This document shows, one piece after another, positions 22,831 through 30,634 of a stretch of 64,000 nucleotides of DNA. The DNA lies in the NCBI GenBank assembly GCA_039932335.1, contig JBDTQH010000014.1:45118-109117 (forward strand), read 5' to 3'. The DNA is from Chloroflexota bacterium. GTDB lineage: Bacteria; Chloroflexota; Chloroflexia; QHBQ01; JADMIH01. The position numbers were made by a program, and so were the translations under genes. The notes under the pieces were generated by a model. The model ran no database searches, was not told the DNA's origin, and saw only the letters and a list, made by a program, of their open reading frames with translations. Every line of letters begins with the position of its first letter. The first letter of the stretch is position 1.

Positions 22831-23529
22831 TCACTCTACATCAAGGAAGCGATAGCCTATACCGGGCTCGGTAATAATGTAAGTTGGGCGCTCCGGTCGC
22901 TCTTCGATTTTGGCCCTGAGTTGCCCTATATAGACCCTTAGCAGTTGAGTATCGCCCAGATACTCCGGCCCCCATACCTTATGCAAGAGCGTTCTATGGG
23001 TGACCAGCTTACCTGCGTTTAACATGAGCGTTTCCAGCAGATTATACTCGGTAGGGCTGAGATGTACAGGAGAACTACGTAGCCTTAAAGTGTGCCCTTC
23101 ACGATCAAGAGCCAGTTCACCGATGCTGATAGGCTGAGGTGGGGCAAGTGCAGAAGCAGACTGCCCATAATGGCGGAGCGCAACCCGTATACGTGCCATC
23201 AGTTCCCCCATGCCGAAAGGCTTTGTCAGGTAGTCGTTGGCACCGCCATCGAGTGCTGCAATCTTATCTTTTTCGGTGTCACGAACAGAGAGCACTATGA
23301 TGGGCGCATCTGTGCGCTTGCGTAGCTCCCCGGCGACCTCGACGCCGTCCAGATCGGGAAGCCCCAGATCCAGTAAGATCAGATCGGGGGCGAAGCTCGC
23401 CGCCATGGAGATACCTGCCTGTCCGGTGTCAGCGGTGGCTACAGCGAAGTTGTGTCCCTGAAGTGCTGGGCGCAAAGCACGTGCAATCGCCGGTTCATCG
23501 TCAATTATTAGCACCCGCAAGTCACGCAT
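22831..23529 (-). CDS. OmpR/KdpE-family response regulator (receiver plus winged-helix DNA-binding domain)
   Basis: Start MRDLRVLIIDDEP overlaps the upstream kinase stop (ATGCGTGA). Receiver motifs (DLILLDLGLPDLDG, KPF) and an OmpR-type C-terminal domain (LSPTEYNLLETL...GYRF). Confidence 0.8.
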   Translation of the reverse strand: MRDLRVLIIDDEPAIARALRPALQGHNFAVATADTGQAGISMAASFAPDLILLDLGLPDLDGVEVAGELRKRTDAPIIVLSVRDTEKDKIAALDGGANDYLTKPFGMGELMARIRVALRHYGQSASALAPPQPISIGELALDREGHTLRLRSSPVHLSPTEYNLLETLMLNAGKLVTHRTLLHKVWGPEYLGDTQLLRVYIGQLRAKIEERPERPTYIITEPGIGYRFLDVE

Positions 23530-28390: not shown

Positions 28391-30634
28391 ATGGACCACC
28401 CCACAGATCAATCTGCCTCAAGGCTGGATACCGGGCAATCCGAGCCTGGCGGCGAAGTACAGGCACACAACGTCGCGCAGATTACCGGTGGCGAACATAA
28501 GGTGCGCGCAGACCTGAGGCAACAGGAAATTATCCAGGGTGCCCATCCGGGCGACCGGTTCATCCGCCAAACTCGCGAGGTAGGGCCATTCAAGAGGAAA
28601 GGGTCCGGCGTGCTGGCAGCATCCATATCTGCCAATCTACCGCGAACAGCGTTAGGGCGGCGGTTCGAGCGTGTGAAGCGTCTAATGATCGGGGCTCCGA
28701 TCAGCTCTGAGCTCTCAATGCACGAGAGGCTGACCAAAACAAAGGCGCTGGCTGTGCTCTCATCAGACCCTCTGTCCTCTGTGGCTTACGCTACCGAGGA
28801 AATCCTTCGCGTGCTATTGCTTGCCGGGATCGGTGCTGTCGCGGGATTGACCTTGCCCATCGGCCTTGGCATCGTGATATTGTTGGCTATCGTCGTTACT
28901 TCATATCGCCAGACCATTGCGGCCTATCCGCGCGGCGGCGGGTCGTACATTGTCACCAAGGACAACCTGGGAACGATACCGGGGCTTATCGCTGCGGCTT
29001 CGATCCTGATCGATTACACGATGACAGTGGCCGTGAGCGTGTCGGCGGGTATTGCGGCTCTCTACTCTCTCTTCCCGGAACTGAGACCTTACAGGGTTGA
29101 GATCTGTATTGGTGTAATTGTGTTGGTCACACTGATCAACCTGCGCGGTGTGCGCGAGTCGGGCAGCATATTCGCGATGCCTACCTACTTCTTTATCGTG
29201 GGTATACTGGGGATGATTATCTACGGCCTGCTGCGAATCTTCTTGGGCGTCGGAGGCGCACCTGTCTACACACCGCCAGCGGAGGTAATAACCTACGGGA
29301 CCGAGACCCTTTCCCTGTTCCTGCTCCTCCGGGCCTTTACCCAGGGTTGCACAGCGCTGACAGGCGTTGAGGCCATATCGGACGGTGTTCCGGCGTTCAA
29401 GCCACCTGAGGCCAGGAATGCTCGTACCACGCTCGGCATAATGGTGATTATCTCTATTACCATGTTCTCAGGTATCACCTTTCTCGCTACCCGGCTGCAC
29501 ATCATGCCAAGCGAGCAAGAAACTGTACTATCGCAACTGGCCAGGACAATCTTCCCCGGAGTATTCGGCTCAAACCCAATGTGGTTCTACATACAGGTCA
29601 CGACGGCACTTATCTTGGTGCTGGCGGCCAATACTGCGTTCGCCGACTTCCCTCGGCTGTCATATTTTCTCGCTCGAGACAAGTTCATGCCGCGCCAGTA
29701 TGCCTTCAGGGGCGATAAGCTTGCCTTCTCATGGGGCATCGTAACCCTGGCTATTGTGGCGTGCATACTAATAGTAGCGTTTGGCGGTGATACCACAGCG
29801 CTCATCCCACTTTATACGGTAGGTGTATTCAACTCGTTTACACTGTCGCAGGCCGGCATGGTGGTGCGTTGGTGGCGCACCCGGTCGCTCGGCTGGCGGC
29901 GTAACTTGCTGGTAAACGGGCTGGGTGCATTTACTACGGGCCTGGTGCTGATAATCTCGACTGTTACCAAGTTCCAGTACGGCGCGTGGATAGTGATCGT
30001 GTTGGTGCCCATCATAATGGCCTTGTTCCTGGCTATCAATGCTCACTACAGAAGAATAGCGGCGGAAGAAGCGGTGGCTACGCACCCTCTTAGCCCAAGG
30101 GCCTTCAAACACACCTTTATAGTACCGGTTGCCCGTCTGAATCCCGTAGCATTAACCGCCCTGCAGTATGCAAGGTCACTCTCTTCAAACGTTACTGCCG
30201 TCCATATCGTTGAGGGAGAAGACCCTGGAGAAGCAGAACAGTTCAACTTGGAGTGGCACAGATTGCTGCCTGGCACGGACATCAATCTGGCGATCATAGA
30301 GTCCCCCTTCAGGTCCTTGATCGGGCCTTTGCTCGCGTATATAGATGCCCTCGACCAGCAAAGCTCGGACGACACAATCACCATCGTGCTGCCGGAAGCC
30401 CTGCCCTCTAAGCCGTGGGAATACTTGTTGCATAATCAGAGCGCTCTGAGGCTCAAAGCATCCCTTTTATTTAGGCCTAATACTGTACTGTCCGACGTTC
30501 CCTACCTGCTTGGCAGCAACGCCACCAGCGGCACACCACGGCGCCGGTCGCTCGTAGCAGTCATTCCTTGGGGGCCCATATTCGTATTGTTGGCCGTTAC
30601 TTTTCTCGTGTACAAATATGTGTTGGGACGGTAG
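28391..30634 (+). CDS. KimA (YdaO)-type APC-superfamily potassium transporter with a roughly 95-aa N-terminal extension
   Basis: The core aligns with KimA (RLMIGAPISSELSMHERLTKTKALAVLSSDPLSSVAYATEEIL; GGGSYIVTKDNLG). 12 TM segments plus a C-terminal cytoplasmic domain. The strong RBS is at the 28391 ATG; alternative internal starts at 28673/28688 have no SD. Confidence 0.6.
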   Translation: MDHPTDQSASRLDTGQSEPGGEVQAHNVAQITGGEHKVRADLRQQEIIQGAHPGDRFIRQTREVGPFKRKGSGVLAASISANLPRTALGRRFERVKRLMIGAPISSELSMHERLTKTKALAVLSSDPLSSVAYATEEILRVLLLAGIGAVAGLTLPIGLGIVILLAIVVTSYRQTIAAYPRGGGSYIVTKDNLGTIPGLIAAASILIDYTMTVAVSVSAGIAALYSLFPELRPYRVEICIGVIVLVTLINLRGVRESGSIFAMPTYFFIVGILGMIIYGLLRIFLGVGGAPVYTPPAEVITYGTETLSLFLLLRAFTQGCTALTGVEAISDGVPAFKPPEARNARTTLGIMVIISITMFSGITFLATRLHIMPSEQETVLSQLARTIFPGVFGSNPMWFYIQVTTALILVLAANTAFADFPRLSYFLARDKFMPRQYAFRGDKLAFSWGIVTLAIVACILIVAFGGDTTALIPLYTVGVFNSFTLSQAGMVVRWWRTRSLGWRRNLLVNGLGAFTTGLVLIISTVTKFQYGAWIVIVLVPIIMALFLAINAHYRRIAAEEAVATHPLSPRAFKHTFIVPVARLNPVALTALQYARSLSSNVTAVHIVEGEDPGEAEQFNLEWHRLLPGTDINLAIIESPFRSLIGPLLAYIDALDQQSSDDTITIVLPEALPSKPWEYLLHNQSALRLKASLLFRPNTVLSDVPYLLGSNATSGTPRRRSLVAVIPWGPIFVLLAVTFLVYKYVLGR

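Follow-up and report, generated by a model that had tools for sequence, protein, structure and literature searches.

A probable pump-less derivative of a Chloroflexia-type Kdp regulon with a KimA-type K+ transporter as its transport output

Genes and regulatory proteins of the locus

A stretch of 64,000 nucleotides from an uncultured Chloroflexota bacterium (assembly GCA_039932335.1, contig JBDTQH010000014.1), referred to here in its entire 64-kb length as the window, was analyzed for a potassium-related locus at positions 22831-30634. The six genes in this interval, referred to as the window genes, encode a KdpE-like response regulator (RR), two histidine kinases (HK1 and HK2), two stand-alone receiver proteins (REC1 and REC2), and a KimA-type K+ transporter. 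An original prediction, made by a model from the letters and their open reading frames (ORFs), had named the same six genes; all were found at the predicted coordinates, and the NCBI gene calls concur (MEO8286550 and MEO8286552-555). The NCBI entries, in consecutive accessions, name the products only as "response regulator," "ATP-binding protein," and "APC family permease." The RR and HK1 genes are encoded on the minus strand, with RR overlapping the 3' end of HK1, and REC1, HK2, REC2, and kimA are encoded on the plus strand. HK1 and REC1 diverge from a spacer of 417 bp, and a spacer of 364 nt separates REC2 from kimA.

RR (22831-23586, minus strand) is an OmpR/PhoB-family regulator with the Pfam domains Response_reg and Trans_reg_C. 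It is 51% identical to Escherichia coli KdpE over 225 amino acids (aa), the whole length, in agreement with the prediction of a single KdpE-like regulator. The best NCBIfam match of RR was KdpE (235 bits, under the equivalog cutoff of 325). Three residues of KdpE that were shown to touch DNA, R193, R200, and T215 (PMC3264566), are kept in RR as R198, R205, and T220. The ATG at 23529 is the likely start of RR, giving a protein of 232 aa.

HK1 (577 aa; 23522-25255, minus strand) consists of a cytoplasmic N-terminal tail, a DUF4118 domain with four transmembrane (TM) segments, and GAF, HisKA, and HATPase_c domains. Its alignment to the KdpD model is confined to positions 424-887, and it is 31% identical to residues 427-886 of E. 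coli KdpD. HK2 (511 aa; 26084-27619, plus strand) keeps the H-box HDLRTPL and the N, G1, F, and G2 boxes. The NCBIfam KdpD scores of 272 bits (HK1) and 241 bits (HK2), against a cutoff of 1123, come from the C-terminal half of the model only. Neither PF02702 nor a Usp domain was found in HK1 or HK2 in the Pfam scan, which agrees with the predicted pair of paralogous DUF4118 kinases without the KdpD/Usp N-terminal domain. Identity is 36% between HK1 and HK2 and 38% between REC1 and REC2, and both pairs are therefore old paralogues.

To describe the two kinases as lacking their sensor, as the original prediction did, is nevertheless misleading. In split KdpD, which is reported to be most common in Acidobacteriota and Chloroflexota, a KdpD/Usp serine-kinase chain is separate from a TM/GAF/DHp-CA chain (Silberberg et al. 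2024, PMC11018627), and it is the latter, the HK chain, that holds the K+-sensing domains (PMC11018627). The N-terminal domain of E. coli KdpD phosphorylates KdpB at Ser162, whereby the pump is inhibited (PMC11018627). Judged by domain content, HK1 and HK2 are of this already described HK chain type, and their K+-sensing domains appear to be retained: all four domains of the HK chain were found in HK1, and DUF4118, HisKA, HATPase_c, and a weak GAF match were found in HK2.

The start of HK1 was also reassessed. The NCBI call is a protein of 551 aa that begins at an internal GTG and does not include the first 26 residues (25178-25255, minus strand). The ATG at 25255 is preceded by AGGAGG, and the N-terminal sequence MSQxPGDR that follows from it is kept in dozens of orthologues. 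Because of this AGGAGG site and the conserved N-terminal peptide, the NCBI call is probably too short and the ATG at 25255 is probably the true start.

REC1 (125 aa; 25673-26050, plus strand) and REC2 (121 aa; 27661-28026, plus strand) flank HK2 and contain a Pfam receiver domain (Response_reg) only, as expected of the two stand-alone receiver paralogues that had been predicted. All phospho-acceptor residues are present in both (in REC1, the acidic pocket, D54, the S/T residue, and K).

A search of the window's ORFs (all those with 80 aa or more) with E. coli KdpA, KdpB, KdpC, and the N-terminal half of KdpD found nothing; the predicted absence of Kdp ATPase genes holds for these 64 kb. The other large ORFs of the window encode S-layer proteins, a DDE transposase, an integrase, and other products, and no further K+ genes were found among them in the Pfam scan. 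An 895-aa ORF at 40372-43059 had the length of a full-length KdpD and proved to encode a tyrosinase-VWA protein.

The KimA-type transporter and its terminal extensions

The transporter gene (747 aa; 28391-30634, plus strand) begins with an ATG at 28391 that has a GGGAG Shine-Dalgarno sequence. Residues 92-705 of the product align with residues 2-603 of Bacillus subtilis KimA (E=2.3e-152, ∼43% identity), an alignment that takes in the LeuT-fold membrane domain as well as the cytoplasmic C-domain. All eight positions for which K+ coordination has been reported in KimA (D36, Y43, D117, T121, S125, T230, E233, and Y377) are kept, as D126, Y133, D208, T212, S216, T324, E327, and Y475. An AlphaFold (AF2) model of the transporter had a mean predicted local distance difference test score (pLDDT) of 82.6. 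In a Foldseek search with this model, the TM-scores (target) to the KimA structures 8b70 and 8b71 were 0.88-0.92, whereas amino-acid permeases were matched at E values of ∼1e-9 with 14-17% identity. By sequence and predicted fold, the transporter is of the KimA type, as had been proposed, and does not cluster with amino-acid permeases; K+ uptake is its predicted activity.

Four parts can be distinguished in the protein: a disordered head (aa 1-38), a conserved module (aa ∼35-91), the core (aa 92-705), and a C-terminal helix (aa 727-745). The original prediction of an N-terminal extension of about 95 aa was correct in that the extension is real (91 aa), follows a Shine-Dalgarno site, and is conserved in part; it required correction in that the extension is not uniform, its head being variable and predicted to be disordered and only the module of ∼55 aa being conserved. 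Four short β-strands and a helix are predicted for the module, with pLDDT values of 62-75 within the whole protein. Modeling of the isolated module in AF2 was unconvincing (pLDDT, 58.6; predicted TM-score, 0.29). No Pfam match to the N-terminal extension or to the C-terminal tail was obtained at E≤10.

A conserved segment ahead of the KimA core is carried by 103 homologues. Since a phmmer search with the single sequence was too insensitive, a profile was used to search for the N-terminal module in 80 KimA loci (one genome per species), and 53 of the 95 KimA ORFs in these loci were matched. Elsewhere, the profile matched only one ORF, in locus L023 (L numbers denote related loci), which was under the KimA score threshold. 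The module is present with or without an adjacent two-component system (in 7 of 15 loci with such a system and in 46 of 80 loci overall).

The additional C-terminal hydrophobic helix, PWGPIFVLLAVTFLVYKYVLGR (30569-30625, plus strand), was not mentioned in the original prediction and has no counterpart in B. subtilis KimA. It is kept in 16 of 18 aligned Chloroflexota homologues, and both Thermomicrobiales-type sequences are without it. The helix would tether the regulatory domain to the membrane. No cyclic di-AMP (c-di-AMP; ydaO) riboswitch or member of any other Rfam family was found in a scan of 22000-31500, the sole match being a chance match to a microRNA. A ydaO riboswitch upstream of the gene is typical of Bacillus kimA and is not a defining feature of the family.

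On the basis of these results, three annotations should be revised: KimA-type K+ transporter replaces "APC family permease," KdpD-type kinase replaces "ATP-binding protein," and the start of HK1 moves as described above. Separately, kimA was often found doubled within a few kilobases, mostly in tandem (L007, L013, L026, L033, L039, L057, L060, L061, L066, L070, L072, and L085). A kinase-regulator pair lies between the two kimA copies in L013 and L061.

Related loci and the KdpE-type operator

The ORFs of the 80 KimA loci were searched with the window proteins and with the E. coli Kdp proteins. A DUF4118 kinase next to an OmpR-type regulator was found in 15 of the 80 loci, and in 13 of these 15 the kinase was within 1.5 kb of kimA. 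As 19.8% of the flanking sequence lies within 1.5 kb, this linkage is significant (binomial p=5e-8) and indicates that DUF4118-only kinases recur with kimA by more than accident. The loci with a kinase-regulator pair span Chloroflexota, Acidobacteriota, Dormibacterota, a Nitrospiraceae metagenome-assembled genome (MAG), and one MAG labeled Bifidobacteriaceae. In ten loci, the neighbors of kimA included kdpABC and/or a gene for a stand-alone protein of the KdpD N-terminal type; in Ktedonobacter sp. SOSP1-85 (L027), for example, the order is REC, kdpA, kdpB, kdpC, KdpD_N, kimA.

Looking up orthologues of HK1 led to two loci, L167 and L168, in which the window genes have counterparts around a kdp operon. 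In L168, HK1-RR is divergent from REC, a small ORF, kdpF, kdpA, kdpB, kdpC, a Cytidylate_kin2-like gene, KdpD_N/Usp, an HK2-type gene, and REC. The gene set of L167 is the same as far as the Cytidylate_kin2-like gene, after which the HK2-type gene precedes KdpD_N/Usp, with a 68-aa receiver-like fragment between them. HK1 shares 57-62% identity with its orthologues in L005, L002, L167, and L168, and the regulators that accompany HK1 orthologues next to kdp operons share 65-67% with RR. For REC1, the identity is 57-61% to the receiver encoded ahead of kdpF/kdpA in L168 and L167 and 55% to that in L170. The HK2 identities are 52% (L168) and 54% (L005), and those of REC2 are 64% (the last-gene receiver of L168), 60% (L005), 59% (L002), and 54% (L170). 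The KdpD_N/Usp chain and kdpFABC, neither of which was found in the window, are located beside the orthologues in L167, L168, and L170. This gene-by-gene orthology (52-67%), together with the synteny, shows the window operon to be equivalent to a kdp operon minus kdpFABC, the Cytidylate_kin2-like gene, and KdpD_N/Usp, and with kimA added at its end.

The same regulatory genes accompany kimA in other relatives. HK1-RR lies beside kimA in the two closest KimA relatives that were looked up (L169 and L170) and in two more loci (L002 and L005). In L169, whose KimA is the closest relative (79% identity), REC is followed by kimA-HK1-RR. In L170, a REC2-like gene and kimA lie beside RR-HK1, followed by a REC1-like gene and kdpFAB. 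L005 has HK1-RR and then HK2-REC2-kimA, in which HK2 and REC2 overlap by 4 nt and the gap to kimA is 35 nt. The arrangement in L002 is kimA / RR-HK1 and then a REC2-like gene.

The stand-alone receivers of the window and of L002, L005, L027, L044, L053, and L167-L170 share the motifs LD(I/V)(N/T)LPDxTGW and (A/P)KPF. Two receiver types occur in these K+ islands, a REC1-like type before kdp and a REC2-like type after HK2 or before kimA, and in the regulated operons, those with Kdp as well as those with KimA, they occupy the first and last positions. When metagenomes were scanned with the receiver alignment, most of the matches were generic receivers (K+ genes were missing from 69 of 80 loci, and the best identity was 44%), so that only the top few were informative; the best relatives were found in the arrangements HK-RR-REC-kdpFABC-KdpD_N (L088, L089, and L092) and HK-RR-REC-kimA (L094). 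The original prediction had proposed a phosphorelay from receiver to kinase to receiver. No HPt domain, HPt gene, or receiver domain within HK1 or HK2 was found at the locus in the Pfam scan. Because there is no HPt and no hybrid kinase, and because the receivers have no output domain, the circuit is better described as a branched two-component system than as a phosphorelay, and the positions of REC1 and REC2 follow those of the first and last genes in the Kdp operons of relatives. Most likely, the receivers tune the kinases or the level of phosphorylated KdpE, as a phosphate sink or by feedback.

Two further features of the kdp-containing relatives were recorded. The Cytidylate_kin2-like gene (PF13189) lies directly after kdpC (L167, 3729-4355; L168, 3508-4158) and has no counterpart in the window. 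A conserved ORF of 26-31 codons that encodes a hydrophobic peptide lies directly upstream of kdpF in L167 (9101-9196), L168 (9228-9320), and L170 (13805-13897), and a small hydrophobic ORF is also present between REC and kdpA in L088 and L089. The peptides begin with MDDLLYLG in L167 and L168 and with MLDVIVV in L088. The small ORF upstream of kdpF may be an extra small subunit or a leader peptide.

The spacer between HK1 and REC1 contains two boxes, CTTATGGTTCTCTTATA at 25340 and CTTATGCGATCCTTATG at 25372, which are 32 bp apart from start to start. Each box consists of a pair of 6-bp direct repeats spaced by 5 bp, so that the pattern is CTTATG-N5-CTTATR, twice. Both boxes are on the plus strand and therefore point into REC1-HK2-REC2-kimA. 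With up to one mismatch allowed, they are the only matches in the 64 kb, where 0.55 would be expected. The same pattern fits the E. coli kdpFABC operator, TTTATACTTTTTTTACA, and the E. coli KdpE half-sites TTTATA and TTTACA have been defined experimentally (PMC3264566). On these grounds, 25340-25388 is taken as a KdpE-type operator, that is, a putative binding site.

The double box recurs in the related loci. With a spacing of 32-33 bp, it is present in the HK1/HK2 spacer of L005, in the HK1/REC spacer of L002, and again in L002 at 92-124 bp before kimA. Two more such double boxes are in L170, one upstream of the REC2-like gene and kimA and the other upstream of the REC1-like gene and kdpFAB, and the spacers of L167 and L168 have double boxes oriented to the kdp operon. 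A relaxed form of the pattern gave 32 matches in 1.49 Mb, compared to 4.5±1.5 expected from first-order Markov simulations. About 23 of the 32 are found a short distance upstream of kimA, kdpA, KdpD_N, or a DUF4118 kinase gene, in loci of Chloroflexota, Acidobacteriota, and Nitrospiraceae. The Kdp-derived genes and this conserved operator agree with the original assignment as a K+-homeostasis regulatory locus with a link to KimA.

Two elements resembling miniature inverted-repeat transposable elements (MITEs) interrupt the spacers of the window operon. The first (25419-25612; 194 bp) separates the operator from REC1; its terminal inverted repeats are perfect over 17 nt, its interior is G-rich, and it is flanked by a duplication of 8-10 bp, TCAGTGAA(G/T)G. 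Without it, the operator would be ∼80 bp from the start of REC1, as in relatives. The second (28193-28376; 184 bp) has 15-nt perfect inverted repeats and lies directly before the kimA ATG. A 12-bp sequence that contains the Shine-Dalgarno sequence, GAAGGGAGATAA, is present twice around it, at 28184 and 28378 (stretch 28184-28389), and without this element the gap between REC2 and kimA would be ∼170 nt. Both elements are short and non-coding and have the terminal inverted repeats and target-site duplication of MITEs. The two are dissimilar to each other, and no further copy of either was found in the window.

Control of kimA, alternatives, and relation to known systems

We consider it probable that the locus is a pump-less derivative of a Chloroflexia-type Kdp regulon in which the KimA K+/H+ symporter serves as the transport output. 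By homology with KdpD/KdpE, we infer K+ as the signal and HK1 and RR as the phosphotransfer partners: HK1 would sense K+ limitation and phosphorylate RR. Once phosphorylated, RR would occupy the pair of direct-repeat boxes at 25340-25388 and, as an activator rather than a repressor, would switch on REC1-HK2-REC2-kimA, with cotranscription extending across the 364 nt before kimA. High-affinity K+ uptake by KimA would in this way be induced when K+ is scarce. The co-induced HK2, REC1, and REC2 would form a side branch that tunes the response, acting as phosphate sinks or kinase modulators with feedback on KdpE phosphorylation. Like the pump, the KdpD-N/Usp chain is missing from the window, which fits the recently proposed role of KdpD-N as a KdpB kinase. 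Instead of "rewired," the term of the original prediction, the locus is better described as an otherwise conserved operon without the pump and KdpD-N/Usp, in which kimA is the sole transporter gene left.

Several observations weigh against this interpretation. In NCBIfam, RR falls short of the equivalog cutoff for KdpE, and HK1 and HK2 of that for KdpD. Because the window itself was the source of the box pattern, the match there is partly circular, and it is the other loci that provide independent support. The strict operator pattern was not present in the more distant loci of the receiver scan; in L094, TGTTGAG occurs twice at an 11-bp period upstream of REC (7860-7925), and this different half-site indicates that specificity has drifted in distant systems while the architecture has been kept. 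In the window, the operator is 3 kb upstream of kimA, no strict box was found in the 364-nt spacer between REC2 and kimA, and the two MITE-like insertions could uncouple the operator from REC1 and REC2 from kimA.

In an alternative, the neighbors are uncoupled: the KdpE-like system would control only REC1-HK2-REC2, and itself, and kimA would be expressed from a separate promoter, located in the spacer or within the inserted element, or would be controlled only post-translationally. The insertion directly before kimA in a gap of 364 nt is consistent with this alternative, as is the spacer itself, in which no strict operator was found and which has only a degenerate, mis-spaced repeat on the reverse strand (∼28079-28098). 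The related KimA loci L001, L003, and L004, moreover, have no two-component system within 10 kb of kimA. In L005, on the other hand, HK2-REC2-kimA is tightly packed, and a double box is located directly before REC2-kimA in L170 and directly before kimA in L002. Likewise, no terminator-like site was found between REC2 and kimA in the window, and the gap would be less than half as long without the insertion. We regard uncoupled control of kimA as unlikely.

A second alternative arises from a motif that HK1 and KimA share. The N-terminal peptide of HK1, MSQYPGDRIVHRTRR, has the consensus (R/L/H)PGDR(V/I)(V/I)(R/Y)RxR over 53 orthologues of HK1, and in the window it reads YPGDRIVH(RTRR) (25223-25246, minus strand). 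The core of the KimA N-terminal module, GAHPGDRFIRQTR, has the consensus (H/R)PGDR(Y/F/I)(I/V)R(Y/Q)xR in 101 of 103 homologues and reads HPGDRFIR in the window (28544-28567, plus strand); G54 and D55 of the KimA extension are invariant in the 103 homologues. A six-frame scan of the window for the extended motif, (R/H)PGDR-φ-φ-R-x-x-R, returned only two places, namely, the cytoplasmic N termini of HK1 and KimA. The strict form of the motif was found in KimA proteins only among 8153 ORFs of the fetched loci, and KdpD_N proteins were without the motif. The sequence HPGE at residue 241 of E. coli KdpD was considered as a further instance and was taken as a coincidence, since it is kept in no stand-alone KdpD_N protein.

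The motif could be a docking site for one shared regulator, for which the best candidate would be the phosphorylated receiver encoded upstream of kimA, although we hold this to be doubtful. If true, one signal would set sensor output and transporter activity together. The receivers would then be direct post-translational switches that bind the PGDR motif on KimA and HK1, replacing the c-di-AMP brake on KimA and the serine-kinase brake of KdpD-N on KdpB, and a post-translational layer of K+ control would stand in for c-di-AMP or the KdpD serine kinase. Consistent with this second alternative, the gene directly before kimA is of the REC2 type in the window, L005, L170, and L094, and the KimA module attains its pLDDT of 62-75 only when modeled as part of the full-length protein. 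However, the same receiver family precedes kdpFABC, and no such motif was seen on Kdp proteins; the module also occurs in many loci without a neighboring two-component system, as counted above. Direct switching by the receivers is improbable, more so than uncoupled control of kimA. That the transporter is an amino-acid permease and the locus is unrelated to K+ is scarcely credible: the best Pfam match was AA_permease_2, and the NCBI and JGI names agree with it, but the E value to B. subtilis KimA over the core and C-domain, the eight K+ residues, the fold comparison, and the occurrence of homologues beside kdpFABC all contradict it.

The pump-less Kdp regulon proposed here can be compared with four known systems. 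It resembles KdpD/KdpE of E. coli in the regulator, including its DNA contact residues, in the 6-5-6 direct-repeat operator of the TTTAYR type, and in the DUF4118/GAF/DHp/CA architecture. It differs from that system in the absence of the KdpD/Usp half, the presence of two kinases and two extra receivers, the doubled operator with a spacing of 32 bp, and KimA in place of kdpFABC. HK1 and HK2 have the architecture of the HK chain of split KdpD (PMC11018627), and in relatives the split-KdpD pair can be recognized, since the KdpD_N/Usp gene adjoins the HK2 orthologue in L168, with a small ORF between the two in L167. The window is without the serine-kinase chain and the pump, and the report on split KdpD mentions no second kinase, receivers, or link to kimA. 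Window KimA shares its fold, K+ residues, and C-domain with B. subtilis KimA (PDB 6S3K, 8B70, and 8B71) and is distinguished from it by the N-terminal extension with its β-rich module, the C-terminal helix, the absence of a ydaO riboswitch, and the setting in a KdpE-type regulon. Like the CheY-type sinks and DivK-type modulators of branched systems, REC1 and REC2 are stand-alone, appear catalytically complete from their residues, and are adjacent to a kinase, with REC2 gene-coupled to HK2. Unlike those proteins, they have no chemotaxis or cell-cycle context, are encoded first and last in K+-transporter operons, and carry the LPDxTGW motif.

The KimA family and the HK chain of split KdpD are already known. 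In the literature found, KimA is controlled by c-di-AMP, via a riboswitch and by direct binding, and KdpDE is presented as a regulator dedicated to the Kdp pump. Our literature search returned no report of KimA under KdpDE control, of a second kinase within the operon, of single-domain Kdp receivers, or of the N-terminal module and its motif, an absence that is not proof of novelty. The results indicate that kimA belongs to the KdpE regulon in Chloroflexota, and a similar membership is suggested by the operator and synteny for Acidobacteriota, Dormibacterota, and Nitrospiraceae. The results further indicate more parts in the Chloroflexota Kdp circuit than have been described: a second kinase encoded within the operon and two conserved receivers with a single domain each. 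If the proposed reading is correct, the window represents a natural "pump deletion" in which the regulatory skeleton was kept and reused for another transporter.

The K+ locus is situated in accessory-looking DNA (13155-16493, 21225-22322, 56639-57757, and 60001-64000 of the window). Its neighbors include genes for a Replic_Relax protein, a DNA methylase, a phage-type integrase, and an nSTAND-WD40 protein, and the GC content of the window rises from ∼0.55 to ∼0.65 over the last 4 kb. A DDE_5 transposase gene directly adjoins RR; a recent loss of kdp caused by this transposase was considered and rejected, since L005 is equally kdp-less without it. A perfect palindrome with a 13-bp stem, ACGCAATATGATT...AATCATATTGCGT (22700-22730), lies ∼100 bp downstream of the RR stop codon and is probably a bidirectional terminator.

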